A DNA stretch of 64,000 nt, taken from the NCBI GenBank assembly GCA_000004985.1, contig GG738905.1; one strand, 5' to 3'. How positions within the stretch are numbered: the first letter of the stretch is position 1; each line of letters starts with the position of its first letter. This document shows positions 8,901-61,632 of this stretch, piece after piece. Made by a program: the position numbers and the translations under genes. The notes under the pieces are model-generated. The model had not been told where the DNA came from. It saw only the letters and a list, made by a program, of their open reading frames with translations, and ran no database searches. This DNA comes from Naegleria gruberi. Lineage: Eukaryota.

Positions 8901-9927
8901 GTATAAGGAGTGTATCGATGAATGGAAAGGACTTCTTTACAAAGTCCAATACAGGTCACGTAGAACCTTGCAAGAAATCTTGGCTATTAGAGGCAAGTCT
9001 GATAGATTGTCGAACTCGGAACTAATTAGAATTGCCAAGGAGGTCATTAGCTCTCACAGATACAAAGAGAGCACTGACAAGAACTACAGAAGATATTGGG
9101 TGCGCTTTATTAGATTTAACATTGAAAGAAAGGCTTGTTTTCCTCCTTCAGAAGATAATCTTATTGCTTTCCTGACGAACATGTTCCTTAAAACACCGTC
9201 AGGAAGCAACTGCAGTGCAGCATATGCTGCTATCATGGCATTTGCCAAGAAATTTAGTTTAGATCAGGGAATGCGAGGAGATAATATTCGAGAAGTTTTA
9301 AATGGAATGACTAATCTTTCAAGAGTGGCTAGTGAGAAGGAAAGAAATGCTTGGCAACTAGAATTTATTAGAAAGTGGGTGAGCATAGGTAGGAGAAGCG
9401 TGTCTGACAGAGAATTTGTATTATACACATCTATGATGATCATAGGTCTACGAACTATGTTGAGAGGAAGTGAACTTGGTGAACTAAAGACCGAAGATGT
9501 TCAATTTCTTCGCTTGGAGAATGGTAAAATGGCAGTCAAATTGAAATGTAGAAGAGTTAAATCTAGTCAGGGTAGAATGGGTAGAATTATGTGTATAGAG
9601 AGTACAGGAAATGATTTGTGCCCAGTATCTTGGTTGAATAGGTGGATGGTGTATAGAGATCAAGGTGATTACTTATTTGGTAATAGTAAGGCTTTGACTA
9701 CAATCGACATTTCGTGGATACTGAGATTTGTGGCGTCAGTTATTGGAGTAGATGGATGTTTCTCCTCTCATTCTTTAAGAATTGGAGGTGCTAATGAAGC
9801 AGCTCAAGCAGGTTTTTCTCTCGCTGCTATTCAAGCTTTAGGCAACTGGTCTTCAAATGCGGTTGACAAATATTTCAGATCTGAGTTTTTCTATAGTAGA
9901 AACGTATCAAAAGAATTGGGTTTCTAG
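5962..9927 (+). CDS. element frame-1 ORF: Gag-like N-terminus with CCHC zinc knuckle and tyrosine recombinase C-terminus; the middle 1.9 kb of this frame overlaps the RT/RH frame
   Basis: Zinc knuckle CFKCGEVGHLAKNC. C-terminal recombinase motifs RGSELGELKTEDV ... HSLRIGGANEAAQAGFSLAAIQALGNWSSNAVDKYF (R..HxLR..GNW..Y). Confidence 0.7.
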   Translation: MKVEVSTPLTKVYCKLHTPINMKNFCLKKFQHSKMLKDKIYALIKEHSSDVMASMPPNTIKMVLDLLGENPEDKERWLEIVEDAGGALFNNFSTKAEAQEYFTKGIKKLAKSGKVASTRSKTTSLQEASTPSNMNKTSSSSQMATPKVSSVSQVREFVQKRRIEETDDKEWKRRGVILDPADFLEKPATWNLPSRQQWEEMNRQINILVVGKQVEEKVKETFPPLSTNNQALKAEYDTLKEVAGSVYGAALLNKDESVADKLEGAIEYIKEKAVHLKLVSFDKHLAEKVRIIRSDKTWREQADLIKVASKLMKVESEVIKNGNLPVINNMTKAVEKARDTYPVASHCFKCGEVGHLAKNCNKSTSKYVSVSTIFRSSRCGRDTGEETSCSLHFECLEGVEEKRSETFDNKAPERGCESASFNRVQKISGDSKFSQVLNKGTTVVGKGDKFAKEDWCIRSLSECGSSGQVQIGTKGRTVQIDCRLETLKQILPHPQIQVQHIEEILRVYSRIWNHVPIIIRFEVWVPPAKSPQGLKKIFCYQLFWTIITVYCVALWLEWITIELHFGNESSGNFDGITTHASFQLFGRCANSECSGRNNSRTECRNMQGRCKPAWFSVREKKECNETNDRISSVGVMCEYYNEDTINDRGYDSEDYEYDKISTHADSFRQNSVGKEDEFDKRDSDCLFGMFYPSKGDACSHIRLNSKNSSEVRMESFGIRKGCQGHSQPSMDYCKYKDVEWKTLPEAIIGLLLLDRCIRLGLGSIFRGEGLEDRWSMVGTRKKTSYPYKRNVSGVKSFDGMEAFVRREKDHYLCGQLDYLTQHFKGMGKKPTYEKVNYELLENYIQPQYNSIVCGMVTVGRELYGRRDQQGDNERSHGLGDDYSSISKDSEGTSSGNRIRQIRFPRKLQSQALHGKRKKFQRRESRRLLYIMDRRGCKFVLRPIQLNRKSIETLRRIKSYNGVDSSSMEEKVLVANSRKVSYKECIDEWKGLLYKVQYRSRRTLQEILAIRGKSDRLSNSELIRIAKEVISSHRYKESTDKNYRRYWVRFIRFNIERKACFPPSEDNLIAFLTNMFLKTPSGSNCSAAYAAIMAFAKKFSLDQGMRGDNIREVLNGMTNLSRVASEKERNAWQLEFIRKWVSIGRRSVSDREFVLYTSMMIIGLRTMLRGSELGELKTEDVQFLRLENGKMAVKLKCRRVKSSQGRMGRIMCIESTGNDLCPVSWLNRWMVYRDQGDYLFGNSKALTTIDISWILRFVASVIGVDGCFSSHSLRIGGANEAAQAGFSLAAIQALGNWSSNAVDKYFRSEFFYSRNVSKELGF
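5969..6088 (+). repeat. 120-bp terminal direct repeat B1 of the DIRS-like element
   Basis: ttgaagtgagtaccccactcactaaggtttattgtaaactacacacaccaataaatatg...gatttacgctc is identical to 9973-10092. It contains the ATG and first ~40 codons of the element ORF. Confidence 0.9.
7208..9025 (+). CDS. element pol frame: reverse transcriptase + RNase H, interrupted by one in-frame TAG at 7646-7648 (degenerate copy or readthrough)
   Basis: RT motifs LVPKGEQYRLIVDLRPLNKY, FSSFDLKSGYHQ, VLPFGWNGSP and then YLDDVQIV after the stop. RNase H motifs TDASDWGWGAYF ... EKADAFS. Confidence 0.75.
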
Positions 9928-10098: not shown

Positions 10099-10148
10099 NN
10101 NNNNNNNNNNNNNNNNNNNNNNNNNNNNNNNNNNNNNNNNNNNNNNNN
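10099..10148. other. assembly gap (50 N)
   Basis: run of N. Confidence 1.
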
Positions 10149-24335: not shown

Positions 24336-27300
24336 TTATATTCTTCTTTCACTTTGTGAGTAAGTGTTGGCATTTCTGTTACCACCATAATTGTTTTGTT
24401 GGGAAGCATAAGGACTTTGTCTAGCTTGGGAGTATGGGCTAGTAGATGGTTGTTGATTGGATGGTTGTTGATTGTTGTTGGCAGTAGTGGAATAAGGTGA
24501 TTGTTGGGCAGCAACTGTGGCAGCGTATGGACTTTGGGAGTAAGGTGATTGTTGAGGAGTTGAGGAAGCATAAGGTGATGGGGCATACGGACTTGTTTGT
24601 GGTGTAGAACTGTATGGAGACTTTTGATAATTATTGTTAGAATTGGACGAGTATGGACTATTTTGATAATTTGGAGGATTAGTTCTTTGACCTCTATCAT
24701 ATGAATCATCTCTTCTTTGATACCTACTATCACCACCATAATTTCTATTTTCATTTCTATTATCATTTCTATTATCATTTCTATCAGAATAGTTGCGATT
24801 ATTATTTCTATCACCAGAATAGTCTCTGTTGTATCTGTTGTTATTATCATTTCGGTTATTATCATAGTTTCTGTCAGAATTATTTCTATATGAATTATTT
24901 CTGTCATCTCTATTGTCATTTCTTTGGTAATCCCTGTTATCATTACGTTGATAATTCGATCTGTCACCTCTGTCATAATTTCTATTATCTCTGTTATCAT
25001 TACGTTGATAGTTATTGTCTCCTCTATTTCTATTGTGGAAGTTGCCACTTCTTGAAAAGTCTACACGTTCTCTATTGTTATAGTCGTGTCTGCCTCCACC
25101 TCCATTTCTTCTAAAGCTCAAATAGTTATTTCTTGGTTTACCATTCATAATATTATCAATCATTTCTCTTGAAGAGCAGAAAGTGACAGTCTTTTCACCA
25201 TTTTGTCCAATTACAACTGGAACACTGCCTGAATCCAAAATTGTTGGCAACATTCTTGGAGGAAGTGTTACATTTGGTAATAATTTGGCAATATACTTGC
25301 ACTTGGATTTTTCAACCAATGGGAAATCAAAACAAGCACTAACAGCTGCAGTCTCTGCAACATCATCTAATAAATCAGCTTTCCATGGTACCTTAACCAT
25401 ATCTGAAGGTGCCACCGAGAGTGGATCTTGTCTGAATGTACCTGCAACATCTTTTGATGCCTTATTAAAGTCAACAAAGGAACTATCATCCAAATAGCAT
25501 GACATGATTGAATTTTGGAGTGGATGTTCAAAGTGAACATATAGAGTAGTATTGCCTAGAGTATTTCTTTCCTTTTCCTCACTTGACAATTTAGGTTCAA
25601 CAGTCTTGATGGCTGCTTGTAATTCTTCTTGATCAATGAAAGGAAGTAAGCATACACCCATCCATGTCTTGGTCTTTCCATTCAAATCAATCTTGAAATC
25701 TGTAGGGTAATAGTTAATAATTGGACTATCATCAGACAACATCAATTCACGATAACATGGAGGAAGAGCATGAGAACTTCTTGGAGGTAAAACACCCAAC
25801 AATTGAGAGAAAGGTTTGTAAGGTTGACCTTTCTTAAAATTGAGACCAAGTTTTGAACTATCAACCATGGCCATATCAGAAGCAAACGGAGCAAAATGGT
25901 AAGGATAGAACCAATCCCAAGAATCACAACCAGTATAATAATATCTAAATACCCAAACCAAACCTTCCAAATATTTCAAAGAAACATCCCAATATTCATC
26001 AGTTCCAATATTAATATCCATCTTGTCCTTGTAATATCTTTCCTTCCATCCCTGAGAACCCAATTTCACTGTATCAGGGAATTTTTCGGTATCAACATTC
26101 TTTGCTTCATCAAGTCTTAATTTCAAGCTATCTTGATATTGTTTGGAATCCATTTTAGAGATGGAAGATGAGGCAGCACCTTCAACCGAAGTTGTGGCTG
26201 TAGATGATGGTTCGGATGGTTGTTCCTCAGTTTCTTTTAACTTTTTTTCAACAGGAGCTTCCTCTTCCAATTCTTCATTTTCCTCCTCATCCTTTTTTCT
26301 TTTACCTAGGAATGATTTTTCAGGTGTATTTTCCAATCCTTGCTTTTTTCTGAAATCTTCATATGGATTTGTAATGTGACCAAACTTTCCACGATGTTCT
26401 TTCAAAATTGGAACAATTTCAACACCTTCAGGTTTGTATGATTGATCCTTTCTTTCCTTTTGTTCACGCTTACGTTGTTCTTGTTGTTTTTTAAAGTATT
26501 CTTCTCTCTTTTCTCTGACAGAGAATATTTTATCTTCATACTCTGAAACTTGTTTGAGCAGATACTGGACACGTGAAACATTGACATCACCATTTTCTGT
26601 AAGATAACCACCCATAACAGGTAAACTCTCCTTGTACAATGCAAGTAACAAGTCAATTGCACCTTCTCTAATATCCAAAGAAGGTAAATGAGGTAAGAAA
26701 TCGTTACCAACAAAGAAGCAAATAAAGACAAAATCATCCAAGCCTCTCTCAAATTCATATTGGAACGGAAGACGATCAGTTTCTTGTAGCAATTCAATTT
26801 CCAAATATTCTCTCAGTACACTAATGTGTAAAATTTCTAATGGCTTGTATTCATAGGGATGGGCACCACTATTCTTCTTTTCCACATCATAACCCTTTCC
26901 TCCAGAATTTTTACCAAAATTGACTTTTTCTCTTAGATTGTAAAAGTATGGTTCGTGTGTTGCAAGAGCAAGCATTGTAAGATCAGCATCCAATCCATGG
27001 ATAACATGACTAGTATTTGGATTATATCCTTTCATTTCTCTTTGGGATCTAATAAAATCCATAATTTTATGTTCTCCTTCACCTGGAACATTTGCATCAC
27101 TTAAAATAATTTTGACCTTTTTCCATCCTTCATCAGTGGTCAACTTCATGTGAATGAAATATCTTAGAGCTTTTCCTAGACGATACATGAAAGGAGTACC
27201 AGGAGTAATCACGTTTGAATCCCAATTATCTCCTGCAGGGTGAATTTCAAAATATTCATCCTCTTCCTCCTCCTGATTATTATTACTATCTTCAAATTCT

Positions 27301-27944
27301 TCATTGAGTGGCATATCATTATCTTCCATTAATAAACTAGCTAATTCCTTATTCTTGAAAGAAGAAAGTTTTTTCTTTTTCAAAATTCTAATTGGTTTCT
27401 CTGCAATAGAATCAATCTTTTCTGGTGGTGGTTCTAATCCACGACTAATTAATTCCTCACGTAAATCTCTTTCAACTTTCTTTTGATCTTCCATATCTTT
27501 TGCAGATTTATAACGACGAGCACGTTGTTGATTTTGTTTGGCTCTCGGAGCAGGACCATCAACAGCCATGAATAAAACTTTTCTTGGTCTGATGGCTGCA
27601 TAAATTCTCTCTACATATTCAAAGATCTTTTCATACATTTCTTCTTCTGTTTTAGGTGCTTCTTCATCTTCTGGATGGCAACAAGGGTGAATAATACCAT
27701 TCATATCCAAATATAAATTATCAAATTCTTTTCCGTTAGGATTTGGTTTGGTTGTATCAATTCCTTGGGTTACAATTCTAACAGTCTTCTTTTTAATGGT
27801 TGGTAATTGTCCATCAGCAACCTCAAAATCATCATAATTTGATGAAATTGTTGTTTTTTGTACTGTAGGTATTTCTTCAACACATTCCGATACAATATTT
27901 GGATATTTCTCTGTTAAATATCTATATAATCCTGGTACACCCAT
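24336..27944 (-). CDS. XRN-family 5'-3' exoribonuclease (1202 aa) with RD/RN-rich and SPY-repeat C-terminal tail
   Basis: N-terminus MGVPGLYRYLTEKYP plus conserved XRN_N acidic residues (LYLDMNGIIH, FMAVDGPAPRAKQNQQRARR, GEGEHKIMDFIR, HGLDADL). The tail has RNDNRDNRNYDRGDR and repeated SPYS/SPYA units. Confidence 0.9.
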   Translation of the reverse strand: MGVPGLYRYLTEKYPNIVSECVEEIPTVQKTTISSNYDDFEVADGQLPTIKKKTVRIVTQGIDTTKPNPNGKEFDNLYLDMNGIIHPCCHPEDEEAPKTEEEMYEKIFEYVERIYAAIRPRKVLFMAVDGPAPRAKQNQQRARRYKSAKDMEDQKKVERDLREELISRGLEPPPEKIDSIAEKPIRILKKKKLSSFKNKELASLLMEDNDMPLNEEFEDSNNNQEEEEDEYFEIHPAGDNWDSNVITPGTPFMYRLGKALRYFIHMKLTTDEGWKKVKIILSDANVPGEGEHKIMDFIRSQREMKGYNPNTSHVIHGLDADLTMLALATHEPYFYNLREKVNFGKNSGGKGYDVEKKNSGAHPYEYKPLEILHISVLREYLEIELLQETDRLPFQYEFERGLDDFVFICFFVGNDFLPHLPSLDIREGAIDLLLALYKESLPVMGGYLTENGDVNVSRVQYLLKQVSEYEDKIFSVREKREEYFKKQQEQRKREQKERKDQSYKPEGVEIVPILKEHRGKFGHITNPYEDFRKKQGLENTPEKSFLGKRKKDEEENEELEEEAPVEKKLKETEEQPSEPSSTATTSVEGAASSSISKMDSKQYQDSLKLRLDEAKNVDTEKFPDTVKLGSQGWKERYYKDKMDINIGTDEYWDVSLKYLEGLVWVFRYYYTGCDSWDWFYPYHFAPFASDMAMVDSSKLGLNFKKGQPYKPFSQLLGVLPPRSSHALPPCYRELMLSDDSPIINYYPTDFKIDLNGKTKTWMGVCLLPFIDQEELQAAIKTVEPKLSSEEKERNTLGNTTLYVHFEHPLQNSIMSCYLDDSSFVDFNKASKDVAGTFRQDPLSVAPSDMVKVPWKADLLDDVAETAAVSACFDFPLVEKSKCKYIAKLLPNVTLPPRMLPTILDSGSVPVVIGQNGEKTVTFCSSREMIDNIMNGKPRNNYLSFRRNGGGGRHDYNNRERVDFSRSGNFHNRNRGDNNYQRNDNRDNRNYDRGDRSNYQRNDNRDYQRNDNRDDRNNSYRNNSDRNYDNNRNDNNNRYNRDYSGDRNNNRNYSDRNDNRNDNRNENRNYGGDSRYQRRDDSYDRGQRTNPPNYQNSPYSSNSNNNYQKSPYSSTPQTSPYAPSPYASSTPQQSPYSQSPYAATVAAQQSPYSTTANNNQQPSNQQPSTSPYSQARQSPYASQQNNYGGNRNANTYSQSERRI

Positions 27945-28078: not shown

Positions 28079-31000
28079 TCAAATTCTTAGCATGTTGAAA
28101 ACTTCCTTCTTGAGGGAATCTAATAGGATTGGTTTGTAAATGACAGAGTCAAAACCATGACCCACTAGAGTATCAACACTTTCCCAAGTATTGGCTGTAA
28201 TGGCTAAAATTGGTGTTTGTTTTTCAGTTTCGTTTTGTTTCTCTGCTTTACGAATCATTTCACATGCTTCCTTACCTGAAAGAATTGGCATGAAACAATC
28301 CAACAAGATAATGTCGTACTTCTTTCGTTTGTACATGTTGAAACATTCCATTCCATCACAGGCTACATCAATATCTTTAAATCCAATAACTCTTAGCATT
28401 TTGGTGAGGATTTTCCTATTAACTGCATTATCATCTACAACAAATATTGATTTCTTACTAATGTCAGGTCGAATAGGACTGGATGGGTGGTGAGATTCTG
28501 ATCTTTCACTTGTTGGAGAGGCTGTTTCTACTCCCAAGAATGTTGGCATGCTGCCTACTTCAACAATTGATTGTCTTGGGGTACAACTGGCTTTCTTGCA
28601 ATGTGCATTGTGCGGTTTCTCTTTCAACACCAAATCAGCCAAATCAACAAACTTGATCGGTTTGGTCAGGTATGAGAAAGTTTGATGATGTCTTGTTTCT
28701 CCTCTGAATATTGAAGGAATTATCATGCAATTCAATTGTTCCACAAATCTAGTGCCTTGAATTTGAGTACAGAACGATTCTGGGCAGAAAATCATATATT
28801 TACAGGAATGATCTGCAACATGGAGAATATTTTCAGATTCTTGAACAAAATCTGCATGAGTTTCAAAATCTTGAATAAGCACAACTCGTTTGAACAAGTT
28901 CAAATAGGAAGACAGTACTTGTCTAAAAACTGGATCCTCATCAATAATGATAATACTCAAATCTTGTGATTGATCTTCACTTAGAACGTCCAATAAATTT
29001 TCTGGATTCAAATTAATGTGAGTTGAGGAAGAAGAGCCTTCAGAATCTGTAACTTGCTCTTGTTTGTCCATTTCTTCGAGAGGGATATAGACGTTCATTG
29101 TTGTTCCTTCTCCTACTCTTGAGTTGACAATAATCTTTCCTTCCATTTTCTCAATAATTTGCTTAGTAATATTCAATCCAAGTCCATTTCTATTGGTATT
29201 GATGAGACTACTTCCTCCATTGTTCAATTTTGTAAATTCTGATTGTTTAAAGTAGTGCTCGAATCCTTGGGTCTTTTCTTGTTTTTCTATAATGTGGAAT
29301 GGTTTGAATAAACTTCCAATTTGAGACTCTGAGATACCACATCCATTATCTTGACATTCAATCTTGAGATAGAAGCAATTCTTCTTAATTTCCTCTTCTT
29401 GGAAGTGTAGTTTCAATTCCTCATCCTTTGCCTTTTTACATTTGAGCAGGACTTGACCTCCCTTAGTATACTTGATCGAATTTGAAACCAAATTCATTAC
29501 AATTTGACTGATCCTCACAGAATCTCCCATTAAAAACATTGGTACTTTGGAAACATCAAAGAATGAATGTAAAGTATTCTTCTTTTCAATTGCTAATGGA
29601 GAAAATACACAAGTTATGGATTCTATCAAACACATGACATTAAATTGTTCCACCTTCAGTTTGATATTTCCAATTTCCATTGAACTCATTTGAAGAGAAG
29701 AGGATAGGATGTGTAATAAGAGTGCCGCATTTTCATGAACATCATTAATCATTTCTGAGAAGGAAGCGTTTGAAACCATGCAATGTTTACAACTCTCTGA
29801 ACAATCTTCACTCTTATAAATATTCTTAATTAATTCTACGGAACCAATAATGGCATGAAGTGGATTTCTCAATTCATGAGATAGTGATGCAATAAATCTC
29901 GTCTTTTCATAATTTGAAACTCTTTCCTTTGCAATTTCTACTTGATGACTAGTGTACTGATTATTTTTCTCTGTCAAGTGTTTGGAGAAGAAGAAAGATC
30001 CGATTAATACTGTATTCTGAATTACAAACACTTCCAACACTTTAACATAAAAGTCTGCTCTTTCCTTCTCACTCAGTAAATCGTACCACATGTAAAAAGA
30101 AGTAAGTAAGGAAATGGTGGTGAAAGCAATCAATTGCCCACATCCAAATAATATATAACTAGACTTGTAATAAAACGACATGGACACTACAAAAATCTTA
30201 AATGTTGTAATGATATGCATAGGACTTAATGGTCCATACTTGATTTGCATTGCAATTTGTACAAAATCAGCAAGAGATATTCTCGATAAGTTAATCATGG
30301 AAAAGGCATGTAAGGTTGTAACCTTATCTAATATAATGTTCACGCCCATATGTATAAAATGTTCCACAACTAGTACTATAACGAAGAATAACGGTCCTAT
30401 ATCCCATGATGCTATTGCTCCAAATATAATTGGCATGATGGCCAGATAGGACCCGACTGTTGAGTGGCAACTTTGTTGTTGTTTCACTTGTTGTAAATCT
30501 ACTTCGTCTTTGATCGCTGCTGATGAATTAGCACTCCCTGCTGTGGAAGATGAAGGAGATGGAGGAACTGAATTGTTATTGGTGGTGGTAGATGAAGAAT
30601 TATTAGTTGGACTATTTGAAGAGTATTTGGCCTTAATAGAAGAGGATGGCGATTCGGGGGCCATCTCTTCCTGGTTTGGCATTCTCTTCACCACAATATT
30701 GCCATTACTTGTTTGATGGTCTAATTTTCGGAAATTCTTACTTTTCATTATTGAGGCACTCATTGGTGATGAGAAATTCATATTATTTCTTATGCTATTG
30801 ATGGTGCCTGATCTTCTATCCTTCTTTAATTGTTGTTGAGTGGCCACAGTGTCAAATTTGTCTTGAAGAAGTGAAGGAGGAGTTAAGGAAGGTGAAGATG
30901 TACTCGTTGTTTGTGGGGAAGAGGATGATGAGAGAAATTCATCATCTATTGCTTCCATAGTTGGTGTTGTTGCTGCATTAAAAGTGTTGTTATTATCATC

Positions 31001-31213
31001 TTCATCTTTATGAGGGACGGAAATTCGGATGGGAGAATTAGGTTTATAGTGATGAGAATTGTTGTTCGTTCTCACTGAACCTTCTTGTTCATTATTGAAA
31101 CGATCATCACCACCAATTGATGTTGTTGTTATTATATTGGAACTATTTGATTTGAAATTGGATATCAAAGATGTTGTCATGACTATGATGGCCGTGGAAG
31201 TTATCTTTTTCAA
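28079..31213 (-). CDS. hybrid sensor histidine kinase (TM region + HisKA + HATPase_c + receiver domain)
   Basis: H-box SHELRNPLHAIIGS; G-boxes DNGCGISESQIGSLFKPFH and GLGLNITKQIIEKMEG; receiver FVVDDNAVNRKILTKMLRVIGF...DIILLDCFMPILSGKEA...K; several TM helices upstream. Confidence 0.9.
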   Translation of the reverse strand: MKKITSTAIIVMTTSLISNFKSNSSNIITTTSIGGDDRFNNEQEGSVRTNNNSHHYKPNSPIRISVPHKDEDDNNNTFNAATTPTMEAIDDEFLSSSSSPQTTSTSSPSLTPPSLLQDKFDTVATQQQLKKDRRSGTINSIRNNMNFSSPMSASIMKSKNFRKLDHQTSNGNIVVKRMPNQEEMAPESPSSSIKAKYSSNSPTNNSSSTTTNNNSVPPSPSSSTAGSANSSAAIKDEVDLQQVKQQQSCHSTVGSYLAIMPIIFGAIASWDIGPLFFVIVLVVEHFIHMGVNIILDKVTTLHAFSMINLSRISLADFVQIAMQIKYGPLSPMHIITTFKIFVVSMSFYYKSSYILFGCGQLIAFTTISLLTSFYMWYDLLSEKERADFYVKVLEVFVIQNTVLIGSFFFSKHLTEKNNQYTSHQVEIAKERVSNYEKTRFIASLSHELRNPLHAIIGSVELIKNIYKSEDCSESCKHCMVSNASFSEMINDVHENAALLLHILSSSLQMSSMEIGNIKLKVEQFNVMCLIESITCVFSPLAIEKKNTLHSFFDVSKVPMFLMGDSVRISQIVMNLVSNSIKYTKGGQVLLKCKKAKDEELKLHFQEEEIKKNCFYLKIECQDNGCGISESQIGSLFKPFHIIEKQEKTQGFEHYFKQSEFTKLNNGGSSLINTNRNGLGLNITKQIIEKMEGKIIVNSRVGEGTTMNVYIPLEEMDKQEQVTDSEGSSSSTHINLNPENLLDVLSEDQSQDLSIIIIDEDPVFRQVLSSYLNLFKRVVLIQDFETHADFVQESENILHVADHSCKYMIFCPESFCTQIQGTRFVEQLNCMIIPSIFRGETRHHQTFSYLTKPIKFVDLADLVLKEKPHNAHCKKASCTPRQSIVEVGSMPTFLGVETASPTSERSESHHPSSPIRPDISKKSIFVVDDNAVNRKILTKMLRVIGFKDIDVACDGMECFNMYKRKKYDIILLDCFMPILSGKEACEMIRKAEKQNETEKQTPILAITANTWESVDTLVGHGFDSVIYKPILLDSLKKEVFNMLRI

Positions 31214-31548: not shown

Positions 31549-32694
31549 TTATAGAATGAAACAAAGATCCTCGAACCAACCCACTCGTTGACCTGCAATC
31601 TTTTTCAATGACATTTGTTGCATTTTTAGCTTGGCCTTACATTCGAGGCCAATATATGGCGTCTTGTTCGTAATCAATTCTGCAGTGTCTCCATCTTCAG
31701 TATTTGGATAAAAGTAGTAGATTAAATTTTGATAATTCAAATCTTTGGTGAATGGGTTGATTCGCATATCGGCAGTTGCCTTAATTTCTTCAAGTGTTCG
31801 GGCATAATTCCAAACTCTTAGTTCTGTAAAATCAGCACACATATTGACACCTTCCCACAATACAATCTTTGAAATTAAAGAATCTTTGTCGAATGAATGT
31901 GTAGGATATTCTAAGAAATAGTCCTGATTCACTCTAACCTTGATGTTATCTTGCTCAAAGACAAGCACAAAATGTTGCCACTGATCTGGTGCAATATAAT
32001 TAATAAATCTCATATCAGTAGTATTAAAATTGATGTAAAGAGCTCCAATAGAAAGACTTAATTTGATAGAACGTGATGCTGAACAAGTAATAGTCAACAA
32101 GTCGCCACTAACATTCTGCTTAAATCTAGCCCAAAATTCAATTGTAAAATTACTCATCAAGATGGGTTCGCTCATGTCCGTAATCTCTGATATTGGTGCT
32201 ATCCTTTCCATCATATCCAAGTCAAACATATAGGAAGCATCAAATAGTTCATTTCCAATAGCCGAATAGGGTCTTCTTATTTTCCCAACAGCTTGTTTCA
32301 AACTAGATTTATACGTTAATCCCAACTTTTCTCTCACATCTTCCATATACTTTTCATCCTTCTTCATCATGGCTTGTAATAATAATTTATAAACCAATGA
32401 ATCCTCACTCTCAAACAAATCATGACACATTGTATTCAAAACAGACAAGATTGGAATATAACCAACACCAGCAAACTGTAAAATCATTCCGAAAATCTCT
32501 GATGGCAACTGATCAAACCCTGTAGGCTTTCCCGAAAAGGCTTGTTTTGGTGTATGAATACTAACAAAATCCTCTAATTTTTGTATATTGTGATTGAGAG
32601 TGGGATGTTCTCTTTGGGAGGCTCTCAACATGCCGAGAGGTCCTTTCGCAAAGAGTGATTGAACAACATCTTGTTTATGATAGGAGGAAGACAT
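31549..32694 (-). CDS. F-box-like protein with C-terminal ConA/LamG-like beta-sandwich region
   Basis: LPSEIFGMILQFAG...ILSVLNTMCHDLF is F-box-like. The C-terminal half (WQHFVLVFEQDNIKVRVNQDYF...LRVWNYARTLEEI) resembles a LamG/ConA-like fold. Confidence 0.5.
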   Translation of the reverse strand: MSSSYHKQDVVQSLFAKGPLGMLRASQREHPTLNHNIQKLEDFVSIHTPKQAFSGKPTGFDQLPSEIFGMILQFAGVGYIPILSVLNTMCHDLFESEDSLVYKLLLQAMMKKDEKYMEDVREKLGLTYKSSLKQAVGKIRRPYSAIGNELFDASYMFDLDMMERIAPISEITDMSEPILMSNFTIEFWARFKQNVSGDLLTITCSASRSIKLSLSIGALYINFNTTDMRFINYIAPDQWQHFVLVFEQDNIKVRVNQDYFLEYPTHSFDKDSLISKIVLWEGVNMCADFTELRVWNYARTLEEIKATADMRINPFTKDLNYQNLIYYFYPNTEDGDTAELITNKTPYIGLECKAKLKMQQMSLKKIAGQRVGWFEDLCFIL

Positions 32695-33172: not shown

Positions 33173-36100
33173 ATGACAGCTTCAACCACAGTGTTAATAT
33201 GCCTGTTGTCTTACTTGTTTCTTTCCTTCTTCTTTACTTATAACTATGCAGCCGATCAAATTTACTATTCGAATCGTCCAACTTCACAAATGACGAAACC
33301 TTTCGTATATCAATTAGCAAGTGGTGCACCTGTTGCCCTCTCGATCAAATATTTCGATAACACAGGTGATTACGACAATGTATACCACTTCATCCCTGAC
33401 AATCCCTCAGCAAAATCCAACTTTACAATGCGTTTCTATGTTGATGGATTTTCGAATATTGCTTGGAGTGCTTTATTGACTAGTTTGGTATCTGGATGGA
33501 ATTCAGTGTCGAAATGTGGAGTTTTAGTCAAGTCAAGCTTGTCTAGCTCTAGAGAATCGACCACTTCACAAAATTCCACATTCTTTAATACACCTCTTTC
33601 CATTTCGAATAGTGATAAGTTTAATTGTGTGGTTTCGGCTAATTTTGCAAAAGCTGGATTGTTTGAAGTGTTGGTTACTCCAAAATCTAATTATGAAGAG
33701 GGTGTTTATTTATTTGAATATACTCCTGTGGCTGGTTTAACAGCTGATCAATCTTTATTTCAGGCAGAATTGGTCGTCTATTCGAAAACCACCTTTACGA
33801 AACTTGTTGGAAATCCGGTGGTTGATCCAAACAGTTTATTGGAAATTCAGGTAGCTCAACCAAGTATAATTGATCCAACTAATCCACCAAATCTCGATAA
33901 CGAAACTTCCACTTCTTACATTCCATTGAGAGATAACTTTGGAATGAATGCTATTGTTTCTTCTGCAGTTTCTAATAAGATGAATTTGATTTATACATGG
34001 CAAGTTATGAGAGTTTACAAATTGAACACTGCCATAATTGATGTCATGCCAAAAACTAACTATCTCGGTAAATCCAATACTCTCCAAGCCATGTATCAAC
34101 AAAACAGTTTAGGATACTCCTCTCTCGTTTTATCTCAAGATAAAATACTCTATGCTGATACAGCTTACAAGGTAGTGGCCTCAGTTTACTCCTCCTCTAA
34201 GACTCTCATTGCTAGAAAGATCAAATACTTGAGAACGCCACTCGATTTCTCTCCAGTCTTGTCAACTGTTGGAACTGTTTCACCAACCATTGTCAATTTC
34301 ACTGATCCACTCACTTTCAAAGTAACCTCTAATTTCAAATATAGCGACAATTCAGATGCCACTAATTTACAATTTGCATTTGGTTATTTGGATACTTCCC
34401 TAATTAAGAGTTCTGATGTCATGAGCTTTAGTAATTTGGACAATGTTCCTTACTCGACCATTATGCAAGGATTTGTGAGGGTGACTGATTATTCCACTTC
34501 CAAAATTATTTCTTCCTACCTTCCACCAAGTTATGCTTTGGGAGAAAATCAAAAATCTTGGAAGACTCTTTTGTTTGTGAAGGATTTAAGTTTTGGAAAT
34601 GTGAAAACTTATGCTTTGAATGGAGTTATTGTGAAACCAGTGGCTCTCGAGGAGATTTATCGATTTGTATTACCTTCAGCATTTATGAGTGTTTCCATTC
34701 CACAATTGAAAGGAGTAGTTGGCTTCACAAGAAAATCCTATCAAAGCACTGCCAATTCAACACTGATTGACTTGGTTCAAAGACGTTTATTTGCTGTCAT
34801 TCAGAACAAGTTGGCAACCATGACTGAAAATGATACTGACAAGTTGGCAGATCTTGCTAGAATTCTCGATATTTGGGCATACAATGCAAAGAAAACTATG
34901 GCGAATATGGTAAACACAGATGGAGATGCTATTTTCACACTCTTGTACAATTTCATTTCCATGATTAAGAAAGATGCCAATCAAAACAAGTACACTGGTG
35001 ATGTCACTTCCAAACTTCCACTTGGAATGAAGGATGGTACTGTTTTGGATATACTGACCTCTCTGTTGTCTAGTTGGATGAAAGTTTCTCAATTCAAATC
35101 GAAAACTGCATCACTTGTGAAAATGCTTTCGACTAGTATTGTTGATAGTATTTCACCAAGTGAAGAAAGAAGATATTCAACTGATTCTATTGTATTTTCT
35201 ATTAGAAAGGATTATGCTTCTAATTTTAATGGAACTACTTTAACAACTGATTCTTCATATCATTCAGTTGTCATGCCAACTGTTTCAGTATTCAATTCAA
35301 CGAAAGGTCTGTATGGAACTGAATTTGTAACCTATTTGGAAAATCCAAACAATTCCACATCATCCAGTGGTGGAAACATTACCAGTGATGTAATTTCCTT
35401 GAGATGTATCAATCCATCAGGTGATTACTTCCCTCTTAGCGAATTGACTGATCCAATTGTTTTGAATTTCAACTTGTCCATAGCCAACATTTCAAATCCA
35501 GATTTATTGGTCTGTAAATATTGGAATGAAACTGTCAGTGATTGGTTGTCCAATGGTTGTACAAGAACTGCCCTTCTCACATACGGTGATTACTATGTAG
35601 TTGAGTGTTCCTGTGATCACACCACTCAATTTGCAACATTTGTTGAGTTTCCAACTTCAACTACCAATTTAACTTTAGCACAAAAGCAAGCTTACTACAT
35701 TTTATGGGGATTTGATATTGGAATTGGTGTCATATTTGTGATTGTGAGCTTGATAATGTTATTACTGATTTGTATCTTTAGAAATTCACAACCTGTCAAG
35801 GCCAAGTACATTGCTCCATTTGTGGGAATGACAAGTATCTTTTTAGAATCATTGTTGAGCTATGTTGTTAAGTCATCGCTCATGATTGGTTTCACAGCAA
35901 CCAACTCGACCAATATTTCATTCTATTTGAATACTATTACATATTGTTCTGCTGTTATTATTAGTGTGGCTTTCGCAGAAACAGGAGAAGATTTGGCTTC
36001 TACAGATCATTTCCTCAAAGAGTTTGTACGTTTTCCTTGTGGTATGCTTGCCCTTGGTTATCTTTACCTATTTCACAGGATTTTCCATTGGAAGAATTGT

Positions 36101-37199
36101 TCAAGAATCACTCAATTCAGACACCTCTAAGCAAATTTTCACTTCTTCCATCTATACCATAGTTACCTCGAGTTTTATGGGTGCAATTCTTCTATTCTCA
36201 CTTGTTGCAGTTTCCTTAATATTCATAGTTGACTTGATTTATGCCTTTGCTGTTGAATATAGAAAACCATACATTGATACATCAGAGATTTCAGGAACTC
36301 TTGTGGAAATGAGTGAATCTCAAAGCTCTTCTGCATTCAGCACTGATTCGAATAGCAATTCCAAGAAGAAATTCAAAGATTTGGAAAGCTTTAAAAAGGC
36401 AAAGGATATTACCATGTCTTCCATGTACAAATTCTTTGTCCAAGATGATCCTTTATTCTTCCGTTGTGAGAGTTTGCTTTTCATTTTCTGTTTGGGAGTG
36501 TTATTGATCTCGTATGTGTTTGGAATTGTTGGATTAGGTTTCTTTACACTCACTGGAAAGGCATTGAGTACAAGTGAAAGCGCATTCGAAACTTCACTCG
36601 TTATGGATATCATCAGATTAGTTCTTTCAGTTGTGTACTTTGTCTTGTACATTCTGGTCTTTGGAGATTTGTCACTTTTGATTTACATTTTCAAATATAG
36701 AAAGTACAGAGTTTCGTCCACTTCAGGTTCCACAAGTTTTTCATCTGAATCTCGATACGACAATGAATTACAAGAAATTCTGAATGACGGCTTAGCTTAT
36801 TCCTTATTCGAAAAGTTCACAGTCAAGGAATTCTCAAAGGAAAACCTCCTCTGTTACAATTCCCTACAAGAACTCGAAGATGAAAAACAATTTTATCAAA
36901 AAGATTTGGAAAATCAAGTGAAAATGTTGGAAGAAATCATTGAAAAATATTTAACACAAACTAGTTCATTTGAAGTTAACATTCCTTCGAACACAAGAAA
37001 GAATCTCATTAATTTGATTAAATCAAAGGAAGGTCTTACAAAGGAAAATGTAAAAAAGTCGCTGGAATCTTTGAAATCTGATATTCTGGTCAACTTGACT
37101 GATACCTTCTCAAGATTTACTACTTCTCAAAGTTATGAATTTTGGACGCAAATCAAGGAAGAAAAGGAAAGATTGATGGCAAGAAATAAAATGGTTTAA
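33173..37199 (+). CDS. GPS/GAIN-like motif + 7TM receptor + C-terminal RGS domain; large extracellular N-terminus
   Basis: Signal peptide MTASTTVLICLLSYLFLSFFF. About 800-aa ectodomain ending in the GPS-like motif CTRTALLTYGDYYVVECSCDHTTQFATFVEF. Seven hydrophobic helices follow. RGS core AYSLFEKFTVKEFSKENLLCYNSLQELEDEKQFYQKDLENQVKMLEEIIEKYL. A frame switch near 36020-36080 means a short intron or a 1-nt frameshift. Confidence 0.7.
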
Positions 37200-37399: not shown

Positions 37400-38524
37400 T
37401 TAATGCTTTCTAGGAAATGCAAATAAATATTGAGGAGGAACTGCCACTTGATATTCCAATTCATGAGCAGCTCTAATTGGCCAATAAGGATCATTCAATT
37501 CCTGTCTTCCAATTAAAACCAAATCCGCCTTTTGATCCTTAATTAAATCATTAGCAAATTGAGCATCCTTAATTTTACCGACAGCGCCAGTTGCCAATCC
37601 ATCAACTGATTTCTTGACACCTTCAGAGAATGGAACTTGATAACCTTGAACAATGGAAGTTGGGGAAAGTAATTTGGCATTTGCATTGTTGCCACCTGAA
37701 GAACAATCCAACAAGTCAACTCCACATTTTTGTAAAATTTTGGCTAGCTCTGTAGTATCTTTCATGGTCCATCCTTCATCACCAACATATTCATCTGCTG
37801 AAATTCTCACAAATAAAGGCATTTCACTTGGAATATTCGCTCTAATTCTTTCAACTAATTCAACCAAGAATCGAATACGATTTTCGAAACATCCACCATA
37901 TTCATCACTTCTCTTATTCGAAGTTTGTGAAAGAAATGAAGAAATTAAATAACCATGAGCTCCATGAATCTCAATTAAATCAAATCCTGCCTTAATAGCT
38001 CTCTTTGCAGCATCCACAAATTGCTGAATCACCTCTTGAATTTCCACAATGGTCAACTCTGCTGGAATTCTATGATGTTCATCGAATGCAATTGGAGATG
38101 GACCTACAACATCCCATCCTCCTTGTTCATTTGTGAGTGCTTTTCTACTATTCGCTTCCCAAAGTCTTCCTGTTGATGCCTTTCGTCCGGCATGATTCAA
38201 TTGTAAACCGATATGACCTCCTTGTTCATGGGCAAATTGAACAATTTTTGACAACATGTCAACATGTTCATCTTTGTAAATTCCCAAGCAGCCTGGAGAA
38301 ATTCTACCAACATCTGAAACACCAGTTGCTTCTACGATAAATAAACCTGCTCCACCGACAATTCTACTGCCAATATGTTGGACATGCCAGAAATTAGCAA
38401 ATCCATCAGTTGCTGAGTACTGACACATTGGAGAAACGACAATTCGATTCTTTAATGTTAAGCCTCTAACGGTGAATGGTTGGAAAAGTGGTGGAATGGA
38501 AAGTTCTTGTTGTTGTGTGGACAT
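37400..38524 (-). CDS. NADH:flavin oxidoreductase / old yellow enzyme, YqjM-type (bacterial-like) family
   Basis: NRIVVSPMCQYS, GAGLFIVEAT, HAGRKAS and the downstream GGNNANAK (TIM-barrel FMN oxidoreductase signatures); single exon. Confidence 0.85.
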   Translation of the reverse strand: MSTQQQELSIPPLFQPFTVRGLTLKNRIVVSPMCQYSATDGFANFWHVQHIGSRIVGGAGLFIVEATGVSDVGRISPGCLGIYKDEHVDMLSKIVQFAHEQGGHIGLQLNHAGRKASTGRLWEANSRKALTNEQGGWDVVGPSPIAFDEHHRIPAELTIVEIQEVIQQFVDAAKRAIKAGFDLIEIHGAHGYLISSFLSQTSNKRSDEYGGCFENRIRFLVELVERIRANIPSEMPLFVRISADEYVGDEGWTMKDTTELAKILQKCGVDLLDCSSGGNNANAKLLSPTSIVQGYQVPFSEGVKKSVDGLATGAVGKIKDAQFANDLIKDQKADLVLIGRQELNDPYWPIRAAHELEYQVAVPPQYLFAFPRKH

Positions 38525-42920: not shown

Positions 42921-44756
42921 TTATAAATTAATCTTGAAAACCTCAATTTCCTTAACTTTGAAATTATTTCTTGTTCCACCATGTAAATAATTTCCAGCTT
43001 GTTGACTTCCTTCCACAATTCCCTCAGGCAATTCGAAAGATCCTCCAAGATTCGAATAAGAATAATCACCTGTAGCACTCTCATTGCAAATATACAAATC
43101 ACAAGGAAATCCATACGAAACTGAATAAATATCTCTCATGAGTACTGAATTACTTTGTTTTCCATTTTGAAGTTTTAACACTTTCAATTCTAGTTGACCA
43201 TTTACATCAATTACCTTAAAAAGGAAGACAGATTCATCTGGAAAGTAGGTTGCATTTTCTGGTGATTGCCAACTAACAGATGTGTAGCCTCCAAATATAT
43301 TACCATGTTCAGATTTGATTAGTGACAGAGTTGGACCTTTGTTGTCACATTTTTCATGGAAGTTTTTCGCACTAAATCCATCTCTGGTAGCTCTATAAAG
43401 AAGTTCGATAGTTGGCTTGCTTTTTGTGAGAGAAATGAGATTTCTGATTAGGTTTTTGTCTGTAATTAGTTTCGAATTGATATGTTCGAAACTAGATGAA
43501 TCATATTCGCAACCATTCCAATTGCATTGATCAAAGAATGTATTAATAAATGAAAATCTAATCAAATTTTGATTGGAAAGGTCAATATTTTGGAAACGAA
43601 TGTCCTTAATTTCTCTCGTTTCGAATAATGAAAAATCAATAAGGCAAGAATCGAATATATTTCCTTCATAAGGTGATAAATCTCTCAATGAATTTCTAAA
43701 ATCAATTCTCTTGAATGTGCATTGTTGAAATTTGGCTTTGAGATTGAAATCCATTTCTTCAAATACTGATTGGTTGAATTGACAATTGACAGCTTCAAAA
43801 CCAGGCACATGAAGCTTCTTGAAATGAGTTCCTTTGATGATACAGTTTGATAACTTTGAATTAGTTAAATTACTTTCCCAAATAATTGCCTTTGTCAAGT
43901 CAACTGAGTCAAAATCAATATTTTCCAAATTAGAATTTGACAAGTTACAGCATGAGAGATCACTGTTCGGTAATATTGCTCTTTTAAATGAAGAACGAGT
44001 AATACTTGAGTGGGCTAAAGTAGTTCTTGTCAAATCACAACCTTCAAAATTACATTCTACCAAGCAGCAATTTTTCAAAGTGGCATTTGACATGTTGCAA
44101 CCACTAAAAACACTTCCTTTCAAATTGGATCTATCTAAAACAATACCACGTAAATCCATTCCACTAAAATTACAATTAGTAAATGTGCAATCTGTCAAAT
44201 TAGCTTTTGCCAATTTTAGCTTTCTCATGTCATAACTGTTTAACCAAACTTTATGCTGAGTTGATTGCATCATTTGGATGAATTCTTTCATGGTAATTGG
44301 ATTGTAATTGTGTGATTCCTGTTTTAGTAATTTTGAAAAGTTGAACATTTGACAGGTGCAGAGAAATTCCTGTTTGATGTCACTTGTGATTTCACCAACA
44401 ATTTTAAACTTTAACCAATTGTAAAGTAATTTGAAAATCTTCGGATCACAATCTATGAAAATTGGTTGATTGGCATTTGACAGTTGACCAGAAATTATTT
44501 TACCAAATTCATTGGCTGGTTCTATTGGATTGTTAATAAAAGTGGTTACGGAAACAGTAAAGAGAGTTCCGCCAACATTCAGAGTAATTGGATCACTCAT
44601 ATGGTTTCCAATACCTTTAGTTTGATTAGTTTCATAATATTCTACTCTTTCATAATTAGTCAATGATTTACTTTGATCAACAAAATTTTGATTAGTATTG
44701 TTTGGTTCTTTCATTTTTTTGAAACTTGTTTTTTGAAATTGATCTCTACAATTCAT
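42921..44756 (-). CDS. KCTD-like BTB/T1 domain + pentapeptide repeats + C-terminal TLDc domain protein
   Basis: BTB PITLNVGGTLFTV...IFIDCDPKIFKLLYNWLKF. Pentapeptide repeats ANLTDCTFTNCNFSGMDLRGIVLDRSNLKGSVFSGCNMSNATLKNC. TLDc LLYRATRDGFSAKNFHEKCDNKGPTLSLIKSEHGNIFGGYTSVSW. Confidence 0.8.
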   Translation of the reverse strand: MNCRDQFQKTSFKKMKEPNNTNQNFVDQSKSLTNYERVEYYETNQTKGIGNHMSDPITLNVGGTLFTVSVTTFINNPIEPANEFGKIISGQLSNANQPIFIDCDPKIFKLLYNWLKFKIVGEITSDIKQEFLCTCQMFNFSKLLKQESHNYNPITMKEFIQMMQSTQHKVWLNSYDMRKLKLAKANLTDCTFTNCNFSGMDLRGIVLDRSNLKGSVFSGCNMSNATLKNCCLVECNFEGCDLTRTTLAHSSITRSSFKRAILPNSDLSCCNLSNSNLENIDFDSVDLTKAIIWESNLTNSKLSNCIIKGTHFKKLHVPGFEAVNCQFNQSVFEEMDFNLKAKFQQCTFKRIDFRNSLRDLSPYEGNIFDSCLIDFSLFETREIKDIRFQNIDLSNQNLIRFSFINTFFDQCNWNGCEYDSSSFEHINSKLITDKNLIRNLISLTKSKPTIELLYRATRDGFSAKNFHEKCDNKGPTLSLIKSEHGNIFGGYTSVSWQSPENATYFPDESVFLFKVIDVNGQLELKVLKLQNGKQSNSVLMRDIYSVSYGFPCDLYICNESATGDYSYSNLGGSFELPEGIVEGSQQAGNYLHGGTRNNFKVKEIEVFKINL

Positions 44757-61062: not shown

Positions 61063-61099
61063 TCTTTTCTTTAATTCTGCTTCAATTTTAATAAATTGA

Positions 61100-61632
61100 G
61101 GGGTTTGGGTTTGGGGTTGGGGTTGGGGTTGGGTTGGGTTTGGGTTTGGGTTTGGGTTTGGGTTTGGGTTTGGGTTTGGGTTTGGGTTTGGGTTTGGGTT
61201 TGGGTTTGGGTTTGGGTTTGGGTTTGGGTTTGGGTTTGGGTTTGGGTTTGGGTTTGGGTTTGGGTTTGGGTTTGGGGTTTGGGTTTGGGTTTGGGTTTGG
61301 GTTTGGGTTTGGGTTTGGGTTTGGGTTTGGGTTTGGGTTTGGGTTTGGGTTTGGGTTTGGGTTTGGGTTTGGGTTTGGGTTTGGGTTTGGGTTTGGGTTT
61401 GGGTTTGGGTTTGGGTTTGGGTTTGGGTTTGGGTTTGGGTTTGGGTTTGGGTTTGGGTTTGGGTTTGGGTTTGGGTTTGGGTTTGGGTTTGGGTTTGGGT
61501 TTGGGTTTGGGTTTGGGTTTGGGTTTGGGTTTGGGTTTGGGTTTGGGTTTGGGTTTGGGTTTGGGTTTGGGTTTGGGTTTGGGTTTGGGTTTGGGTTTGG
61601 GTTTGGGTTTGGGTTTGGGTTTGGGTTTGGGT
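61100..61632 (+). repeat. telomere-like hexamer array (TTTGGG)n, about 88 perfect units, with degenerate TTGGGG/TTGGG units at the proximal (left) junction; continues into the gap
   Basis: directly visible: ...gagGGGTTTGGGTTTGGGGTTGGGGTTGGGGTTGGGTTGGGTTTGGG(TTTGGG)n; the G-rich strand reads 5'->3' toward the gap. Confidence 0.9.

Follow-up and report, generated by a model that had tools for sequence, protein, structure and literature searches.

A heterolobosean GAIN-7TM-RGS receptor family and its Naegleria gruberi ortholog carrying a 95-nt out-of-frame deletion

Proteins in which a 7TM region is followed by an RGS domain (7TM-RGS proteins) have been documented in many eukaryotic lineages (PMC3971589). 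Within Naegleria fowleri, 28 of them were described by Bosch et al. (J Biol Chem 2022; PMC9283941), several with GPS motifs and EGF or lectin ectodomains. Four of these proteins (Nf 7TM RGS1-4) were studied, and the RGS domains of RGS2-4 were found to speed GTP hydrolysis on Nf G-alpha, while RGS1 was not assessable; some of the Nf G-alpha subunits are self-activating (PMC9283941). The GAIN/GPS-7TM-RGS architecture is thus already published and not new. The original prediction for the locus analyzed here, which held such a combination to be rare if it is described at all, was wrong in this respect, as the 28 N. fowleri proteins were reported in 2022 together with GAP assays (PMC9283941). The same prediction envisaged a self-contained receptor-GAP that would regulate heterotrimeric G proteins in the absence of a canonical GEF step, and a receptor-GAP for self-activating G-alpha, comparable to plant AtRGS1, has already been proposed for Naegleria (PMC9283941).

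The locus is located in a 64,000-nt stretch of DNA (hereafter the window; positions are counted from its first letter), whose source is Naegleria gruberi and for whose encoded protein a database entry was found. It is described below together with its orthologs and paralogs, which were used to judge the state of the N. gruberi copy.

Reading frames and domains of the locus

The locus spans positions 33173-37199, exactly as it had been delimited before: an ATG is present at 33173 and a second ORF ends at 37199. The first of the two ORFs (ORF A in the ORF list) comprises 985 codons (33173-36130), and the stop map places the stop codon of its frame at 36128-36130. ORF B (approximately 35979-37199, its stop codon ending at 37199) lies in a different frame, which is closed upstream of position 35928. 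The N-terminal part of the encoded protein comprises the following features.

33173-33250, plus strand: start codon and hydrophobic, signal-peptide-like segment, residues 1-26, MTASTTVLICLLSYLFLSFFFTYNYA (ORF list; hydropathy peak at residues 1-25)
33251-34762, plus strand: N-terminal ectodomain, residues 27-530, rich in beta strands (no Pfam family)
34763-35167, plus strand: GAIN subdomain A (helical), residues 531-665 (the equivalent part of the N. lovaniensis ortholog P0002, residues 2-133, is modelled as six helices)
35168-35650, plus strand: GAIN subdomain B (beta sandwich) with the GPS motif at its end (Pfam GPS; Foldseek with the ortholog model)
35618-35626, plus strand: predicted autoproteolysis site H816-T817-T818 (HT↓T, where the arrow marks the cleaved bond; family motif)

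Judged by its hydropathy, the N-terminal segment is probably a signal peptide, and the expectation of a signal peptide with an ectodomain of about 800 aa was borne out by the hydrophobic signal-like N-terminus and the ~810-aa ectodomain that follows it. The N-terminal ectodomain (residues 27-530) is common only to the N. fowleri and N. lovaniensis orthologs, and a local phmmer search with the ectodomain gave the N. fowleri ortholog (P0154) as its sole match. The AF2 model of the N. gruberi ectodomain and GAIN region was built from 5 sequences and, with a pLDDT of 45.6, is unusable for fold assignment. Within this model the N-terminal 500 aa consist mostly of strands with only weak Ig-like/FN3-like matches, and the top structural matches of this low-confidence model were the GAIN domains of BAI2 and BAI3. 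The AlphaFold model of P0002, in which one chain contains GAIN and RGS domains as well as a seven-helix GPCR fold, comprises helices at residues 2-133 (subdomain A) and strands at residues 138-303 (subdomain B), and its GAIN part was matched by Foldseek to BAI2, BAI3, latrophilin, CELSR1 and CD97 (E 1e-8 to 1e-6).

The GPS string named at the outset, CTRTALLTYGDYYVVECSCDHTTQFATFVEF, was located at residues 796-826 (window 35558-35650). The Pfam GPS profile matched residues 780-821 with E=7e-6 and 26.9 bits, above the curated cut-off of 22.5, so the GPS-type motif was upheld by the profile search that had been named as its check. No variation was seen among 16 family members at the GPS positions C, W, G, C, C, C, H, T, T and F, and 79 of the 90 best family matches carry the motif C.C.H[T/A]T.F (HTT in 76 and HAT in 3). 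When compared with the cleavage-site consensus H-L↓T/S, the sequence has His at -2 and Thr at +1, with Thr also at position -1. By analogy with this canonical site, cleavage is predicted at H816-T817↓T818, directly ahead of a Stachel-like strand, TQFATFVEF; the earlier placement (HTT↓QF) was one residue too far.

The membrane domain and the C-terminal part are distributed over the two frames as follows.

35690-35779, plus strand: TM1 (hydropathy; aligned to helix 311-344 of the ortholog model)
35807-35893, plus strand: TM2 (alignment to P0002 helix 357-386)
35915-35974, plus strand: TM3, N-terminal half only, ISFYLNTITYCSAVIISVAF, the last conserved stretch of frame A (family alignment; tblastn)
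36024-36092, plus strand: TM4, frame B, LYVFLVVCLPLVIFTYFTGFSIG, conserved with the orthologs (BLASTP against P0002; family alignment)
36135-36254, plus strand: TM5, frame B (hydropathy; alignment to P0002 helix 498-538)
36255-36464, plus strand: long intracellular loop 3 with the family-conserved DPLxFR motif at its end (invariant L602, F604 and R605 of P0002)
36465-36698, plus strand: TM6 and TM7, frame B (hydropathy; ortholog helices 604-637 and 643-701)
36762-37157, plus strand: C-terminal RGS domain (Pfam RGS; phmmer against PDB; family invariants)

The 7TM region that had been predicted is only partly there. Hydrophobic TM segments are seen, but TM3/ICL2 is truncated and frameshifted, and a 7tm_2 profile match is absent in all 17 members; no Pfam 7TM family (7tm_2, i.e., adhesion/secretin, included) was detected at E<=1 in the window protein or in the 16 family members. 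Seven TM helices with GPCR topology were not found in the window protein, and class B2 bundles were not those with the greatest structural similarity. In the P0002 model, residues 539-587, which correspond to intracellular loop 3, have low pLDDT.

The C-terminal RGS domain was confirmed. The Pfam RGS profile matched residues 1186-1309 of the spliced model (E=1e-8, 35.9 bits, curated cut-off 23.9), and phmmer searches against PDB returned structures of RGS6, RGS10, RGS7 and RGS17. The G-alpha contact residues are kept in the window RGS domain in the motifs EFSKEN, EVN and DTFSRF; the positions tested were E87, N88, N128, D163 and R167 of RGS4, which we take to be the G-alpha switch contacts. 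Across 16 members of the family, E738, E742, N743, N788, T830 and R833 are invariant and D829 is shared by at least 90%. Over the RGS region, the N. lovaniensis ortholog and the window protein show about 60% identity, and the RGS part of the ortholog model (residues 710-856) is an all-helical fold that matches RGS8, RGS16, RGS4 and RGS9 at TMt 0.7-0.83.

Orthologs and the wider family

The N. fowleri ortholog P0154 is encoded by one uninterrupted 4,017-nt ORF of 1338 codons with Pfam GPS and RGS domains, and it shows 43% identity to the window protein over the full length, with the same architecture. P0002 is likewise continuous through TM3-ICL2-TM4, and two apparent 1-nt frameshifts in the N. 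lovaniensis ortholog resemble assembly errors. The 7TM region and the RGS domain share one continuous frame in the orthologs and not in the N. gruberi locus. It follows from the single N. fowleri ORF that the RGS part is not a separate downstream gene, the possibility by which the original prediction could have fallen.

Word-indexed homolog searches recovered the orthologs only, while the family was recovered by an exhaustive HMMER search, which gave 352 library matches at E<=1e-3 and 47 at E<=1e-30, many of them over query positions 100-790. All named family members belong to Naegleria (N. fowleri, N. lovaniensis, N. gruberi) or Willaertia, and D2VLM2 is an example of a paralog that is intact in N. 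gruberi. The RGS domain is present in all 16 members analyzed and GPS in the same chain in 14 of them, and in four of the 16 (all paralogs) a REJ domain precedes GPS. These sequence comparisons and the ortholog model support the view that GPS/GAIN, the GPCR-fold 7TM region and RGS are parts of one ancestral gene. The models also lend first structural support to the view that the "GPS motifs" reported in 2022 would sit in complete GAIN domains ahead of a GPCR-fold bundle.

The deletion in TM3/ICL2 and its explanations

A three-species DNA alignment revealed that N. gruberi lacks exactly 95 nt in comparison with N. lovaniensis and N. fowleri. Two features mark the lesion.

35975-35984, plus strand: deletion junction, at which the reading frame shifts by +1 (DNA alignments, tblastn)
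35975-36130, plus strand: out-of-frame tail of ORF A, 51 non-homologous codons (AETGEDLAST...FRHL) followed by the stop at 36128-36130

The tblastn matches of the orthologs run in frame 2 (frame A) to position 35983 and in frame 3 (frame B) from 35985, with zero DNA between them and approximately 32 ortholog residues unmatched at the N. gruberi junction; no homology to the orthologs was found for the tail of ORF A (35975-36130) in that frame. In the two orthologs, these 95 nt code for the C-terminal half of TM3 together with a portion of ICL2. The Q..RY motif lies in this segment, and its Arg (R422 of P0002), lost in N. gruberi, is invariant in the 16-member family alignment. As all 17 other family members aligned there (the two orthologs and 15 more), including those of Willaertia, retain the segment, the difference arose by deletion in N. 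gruberi and not through an insertion in the others. No other part of the window encodes the missing peptide. In consequence of the loss, the 7TM region of the window protein is both frameshifted and truncated in TM3 (C-terminal half) and ICL2 (in part), and the statement that a single gene encodes all the domains fails for the given sequence, in which they are divided between two frames by an out-of-frame deletion. As frame A (GAIN-TM1-TM3) is split from frame B (TM4-TM7-RGS), the ancestral 7TM-RGS protein cannot be made from the sequence as given. Programmed +1 frameshifting was considered and rejected, being unsupported and unable to restore the missing half of TM3.

In the public gene model (P0001, 1325 aa, "predicted protein"), the frame is rejoined by means of a 49-nt "intron" (36030-36078) with canonical GT..AG ends. 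This intron excises most of the conserved TM4, and the P0001 sequence is without TM4; the intron is a frame-restoring artefact. P0001 is unsuitable as an intact 7TM-RGS protein for comparative or structural work, and the orthologous group is better represented by the N. fowleri protein, which is intact (1338 aa, one ORF).

We consider the locus to be the N. gruberi ortholog of a conserved heterolobosean GAIN-7TM-RGS receptor that was broken by the 95-nt deletion and most likely represents a recent pseudogene or, in the sequenced strain, a null allele (probability of about 70%). Apart from the lesion, both ORFs are open and the other family-invariant residues are all retained in N. gruberi, which suggests that the lesion is recent. 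The same observations would also be expected from an assembly or haplotype artefact, in which the real gene holds the 95 nt and encodes an intact receptor of ~1360 aa, the deletion being confined to the reference or to one allele: both ORFs are otherwise intact and conserved, every family-invariant residue save the deleted Arg is kept, and the 411 codons still open 3' of the frameshift fit an intact gene as well as a very recent lesion. The scaffold is, moreover, a draft with four N gaps, and the N. lovaniensis ortholog carries the apparent frameshift artefacts mentioned above. However, the 95-nt loss is clean and lies inside unique coding sequence, with neither an N run nor a repeat, which is atypical of errors in assembly. 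A second N. gruberi sequence is absent from the 90% cluster to which the window protein belongs. Exact-protein look-ups returned no independent assemblies or transcripts of ORF A, ORF B or the annotated protein. On balance, an artefact of this kind appears unlikely, yet it is the most plausible of the rival explanations. A metagenome scan with a 23-mer adjoining the deletion retrieved one contig (L003), which was dismissed as a chance AT-rich match, as flanking similarity was absent.

The two remaining explanations would leave the locus functional in some form. If a short intron (36030-36078 or, e.g., 35966-36005) were removed, the product would be a variant receptor in which TM3 is shortened or TM4 is missing and the RGS domain is kept. 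The canonical ends of the P0001 intron and the 21 frame-restoring GT..AG pairs that are available agree with this, the 35966-36005 option (40 nt) retains seven hydrophobic segments, and a shortened product could in principle retain some function. Nevertheless, the orthologs have no intron at this site (the N. fowleri gene being a single ORF), and the annotated intron cuts TM4, which is conserved at the protein level, leaving six TM segments, by which the RGS domain would come to lie outside the cell. Nor could any splice recover the invariant Q..RY end of TM3: the missing TM3/ICL2 peptide is restored by none of the 21 pairs. The donors GTTTTC and GTGGCT bear little resemblance to the usual GTRAGT. 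The 40-nt splice at 35966-36005 was rejected as the true structure, as comparison with the orthologs traces the frame change to a deletion rather than to an intron, and a functional spliced gene is altogether improbable. Even less credible, to the point of being nearly negligible, is a split of the locus into two genes, one for a membrane protein with GPS and, downstream of it, an independent one for a TM-RGS protein. The ORFs do differ in frame, and ORF A ends in a stop of its own at 36128, but their 167-nt overlap leaves no intergenic space, an ATG is absent from frame B ahead of TM5, and both parts are contained in a single ORF in the orthologs, in line with the co-occurrence of RGS and GPS in the chains of the family.

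Putative mechanism of the family and comparison with known receptors

In the intact members of the family, the ectodomain and GAIN domain may respond to a mechanical or extracellular cue, for which autoproteolysis and a tethered TxFxxF strand are possible means. The signal would then be relayed by the 7TM domain and may alter the RGS domain in its access, activity or location, and the RGS domain would accelerate GTP hydrolysis on Naegleria G-alpha, making the protein a receptor-GAP like AtRGS1. It is a tentative suggestion, which we regard as possible but doubtful, that the GAIN-7TM-RGS family with its HT↓T site and TxFxxF strand represents true tethered-agonist adhesion-type receptors whose output is GAP and not GEF activity. 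If this were true, GAIN-to-7TM coupling would be far older than the metazoan adhesion GPCRs and able to drive the opposite biochemical output, and the REJ-GAIN paralogs would connect the family to the polycystin lineage. The GAIN domain and the HT↓T site conserved at the family level make cleavage and tethered-agonist experiments worthwhile in a pathogen-related model. From the window locus alone there is little to gain, since N. fowleri proteins of this architecture have been published and the copy in N. gruberi is apparently inactivated; its value is corrective and concerns the public gene model.

The closest likeness is to the N. fowleri 7TM RGS proteins, which belong to the same family and share the large ectodomain, GPS motif, seven TM helices and C-terminal RGS domain. 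The orthologous group of P0001, P0002 and P0154 is not among the four proteins assayed, its ectodomain is without EGF or lectin modules, and its N. gruberi copy is frameshifted by the deletion. With AtRGS1 and the 7TM-RGS proteins of plants, Trichomonas, chytrids, filastereans and ichthyosporeans the group shares a seven-TM region fused to a cytoplasmic C-terminal RGS domain, an arrangement for which a role as receptor-GAP on self-activating G-alpha has been proposed (PMC9283941, PMC3971589). The likeness to AtRGS1 is claimed for architecture only. To our knowledge, AtRGS1 has a short N-terminus without GAIN/GPS.

Metazoan adhesion GPCRs (ADGR, class B2) resemble the Naegleria proteins in having a GAIN domain with GPS directly before TM1, as well as in the Cys/Trp pattern, the His at -2, the Thr at +1 and the Stachel-like TxF[A/S]x[F]. 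In Polycystin-1/PKDREJ, GAIN/GPS also precedes the first TM helix, and REJ is shared with the four paralogs mentioned above; the window protein gave no Pfam match to REJ, and, unlike Polycystin-1/PKDREJ, the Naegleria protein has neither a PLAT domain nor an 11-TM channel-like region. Finally, in the metazoan class C orphans GPR158/GPR179, which act with RGS7-Gbeta5, the RGS protein is recruited in trans, whereas in the Naegleria family it is fused to the receptor, and the structural similarity to GPR158/GPR179 is generic to the GPCR fold (8-11% identity).

Receptor locus and its public gene model

The window has a GC content of about 34%, and its ORFs are long and mostly devoid of introns. 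The receptor gene (33173–37199, + strand) is already a database entry, as a public protein collection holds P0001, a 1325-aa "predicted protein [Naegleria gruberi]" with precomputed Pfam RGS and GPS annotations and 98% identity to the spliced translation of two ORFs:

33173–36130, +, ORF A (985 aa; GAIN/GPS to half of TM3), overlapping ORF B in another frame
35964–37199, +, ORF B (TM4–TM7 and RGS), overlapping ORF A in another frame
36030–36078, +, annotated intron of P0001 (49 nt, GT..AG), linking frames A and B

The GPS-type motif and the C-terminal RGS domain of the original prediction were both recovered. The quoted GPS string lies at 35558–35650 and is matched by the Pfam GPS profile (residues 780–821; 26.9 bits vs. 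a curated cut-off of 22.5), and the RGS domain scored 35.9 bits (vs. 23.9) and is alignable to solved structures of RGS6, RGS10, RGS7, and RGS17, with conservation of the motifs EFSKEN, EVN, and DTFSRF, the counterparts of the G-alpha contact residues of RGS4. The proposed 7tm_2 search gave no such result: no Pfam 7TM family matched the N. gruberi protein, even at E ≤ 1, nor any of 16 scanned family members.

Frame A reaches its stop at 36128, and frame B is not open upstream of 35928. The annotated intron cuts through the frame-B peptide SSKSLYVFLVVCLPLVIFTYFTGFSIG, homologous (in the P0001/P0002 comparison) to TM4 of P0002, the N. lovaniensis ortholog, and most of this segment is lost. As P0001 with this intron has six hydrophobic segments, its RGS domain would face outward instead of into the cytoplasm.

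Further genes and ORFs noted in the window are:

5962–9927, +, CCHC zinc knuckle and tyrosine recombinase ORF (1321 aa; Phage_integrase and N-terminal SAM-like domain)
24336–27944, −, XRN 5'-3' exonuclease
28079–31213, −, hybrid histidine kinase (HisKA, HATPase_c, and receiver)
31549–32694, −, Laminin_G_3 (concanavalin-like) protein
37400–38524, −, Old-Yellow-Enzyme-type NADH:flavin oxidoreductase
42921–44756, −, BTB, pentapeptide-repeat, and TLDc protein

The last five (24336–44756) neighbour the receptor gene, with no evident functional link to it. The first ORF points to a mobile element resembling DIRS or Crypton; reverse transcriptase gave no match in it at E ≤ 1e-3. At 61101–61632, about 89 tandem TTTGGG copies (99% matches) run straight into a 1258-nt N run (61633–62890); such an array, at what may be a scaffold join, could be telomere-like or subtelomeric. 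The long overlapping ORFs at 61071–63953 are artefacts of the N run. Three other N gaps, of 50 nt each, are placed at 10099, 55616, and 60293.

The frame switch in TM3

P0002 (53% identity) is unbroken through the frame-switch region and carries about 45 residues absent from P0001. In N. fowleri, the ortholog P0154 (1338 aa; 43% identity to P0001 over the full length, 81% to P0002) is coded by one unbroken ORF on its contig. In tblastn searches, the frame-2 matches end at 35983, with residue 890 of the N. fowleri ortholog and residue 412 of the N. lovaniensis one, and frame 3 takes over at 35985 with residues 923 and 445, respectively, leaving no DNA between the matches. DNA alignments of three Naegleria species revealed that N. 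gruberi is without exactly 95 nt at about 35975–35984. The missing segment, which includes the cytoplasmic end of TM3 with its Q..R[Y/F] motif, is kept in all 17 aligned family members (among them Willaertia magna), and the Arg of this motif (R422 of P0002) is invariant in the 16-member alignment. Since the segment is present in all these members, the alignments identify the frame difference as an out-of-frame deletion of 31 codons plus 2 nt from the N. gruberi gene. Splicing offers no remedy, as none of the 21 frame-restoring GT..AG pairs restores TM3, and the missing peptide is not encoded in the rest of the window.

As sequenced, translation from 33173 stops at 36128, after half of TM3 and 51 unrelated residues, and the RGS part has no route to union with a correct 7TM domain. 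Thus, the original view of a single gene encoding the whole receptor holds for the domains themselves and for the one-ORF P0154, but not for the ORF in the window. ORFs A and B are open otherwise and all other invariant residues are retained, so that two readings are left: the lesion arose recently, or it is an artefact (assembly or single haplotype). Four N gaps are present in the scaffold. The N. lovaniensis ortholog itself has two apparent 1-nt frameshifts, which its annotation also bridged, by splitting the gene and adding an "intron" of 46 nt. At its locus (L001, 4640–8629), annotated as two models of 441 and 860 aa, the matches of the N. fowleri protein are collinear, abut one another, and fall successively in frames 2, 1, and 2, from which the frameshifts were deduced; judging by this alignment, the real gene is probably a single ORF of about 1330 codons.

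Fold and members of the family

The AlphaFold2 model of P0002 (mb129dfcba220; 16-sequence input alignment, pLDDT 72.9) comprises six helices and a beta sandwich (together the GAIN domain), seven long helices, and a helical C-terminal RGS domain. Foldseek matched it to GAIN structures of BAI2, BAI3, latrophilin, CELSR1, and GPR56 (E from 1e-8 to 2e-4), to inactive full-length CD97 (E = 6e-8), and to RGS8/16/4/9 (TMt 0.7–0.83). Pfam RGS was detected in 16/16 scanned members and GPS in 14/16. The fold matches and Pfam scans taken together give a modelled family architecture of GAIN/GPS, GPCR-fold 7TM, and RGS, with a 7TM domain not assignable to the adhesion/secretin class.

When the GAIN-TM-RGS part was used as the query, exhaustive HMMER searching yielded 352 relatives at E ≤ 1e-3 (47 below 1e-30), many of them of 1200–2600 aa, with the alignment spanning GAIN to RGS. 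Named members belong to N. gruberi, N. lovaniensis, N. fowleri, and Willaertia magna, and the others are metagenomic or run-assembly (Logan) proteins. N. gruberi also has intact paralogs with EGF-rich ectodomains. A REJ domain precedes GPS in four of the 16 scanned members (alignment A2; best E = 3e-31), a pairing otherwise typical of polycystin-1/PKDREJ; other ectodomains carry teneurin-like EGF arrays, NHL repeats, or RCC1-like propellers. The C.C.H[T/A]T.F pattern occurs in 79 of the best 90 matches, 76 times in the HTT form.

Intracellular loop 3 is long and of low confidence in the P0002 model (residues 539–603; window 36255–36464). It ends, just before TM6, with a DPLxFR motif, whose L, F, and R are invariant in the 16-member alignment and whose D and P are kept in most members. 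At the sequence level, DPLxFR and the Q..RY end of TM3 constitute a family signature.

Putative mechanism and known systems

The analysis shows the domain order and the conservation of catalytic/contact residues. A cue would be sensed by the ectodomain and GAIN domain and relayed by the 7TM domain, possibly via the TQFATFVEF strand after a cut at the predicted H816-T817|T818 site, and this relay would determine how available the RGS domain is. Of the original interpretation, the architecture and the likely function stand, but cleavage at HTT|QF is replaced by the above site, and the claim that the combination is rare, if described at all, fails, as it was published in 2022 for N. fowleri 7TM RGS proteins (PMC9283941). 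For this reason the gene belongs to an already known kind, and the N. gruberi locus is an added, probably defective member of the 7TM-RGS family. Within the literature searched, no further paper was found that joins GAIN with 7TM-RGS. Wider interest lies only in the modelled GAIN fold of the family, the predicted HT|T site, and a putative tethered-agonist behaviour.

7TM-RGS proteins are found across many lineages (PMC3971589). Some G-alpha subunits of Naegleria are self-activating, and in three of the four N. fowleri 7TM RGS paralogs studied, the RGS domain is a selective GAP (an accelerator of G-alpha GTP hydrolysis) which binds transition-state G-alpha (PMC9283941). These proteins are the closest known relatives of the N. 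gruberi gene and form one family with it; its ortholog P0154 was not among the four assayed. The likeness to AtRGS1 is limited to architecture and presumed function, that to adhesion GPCRs to the GAIN/GPS part, and that to polycystin-1 to the REJ-GPS part of some paralogs.
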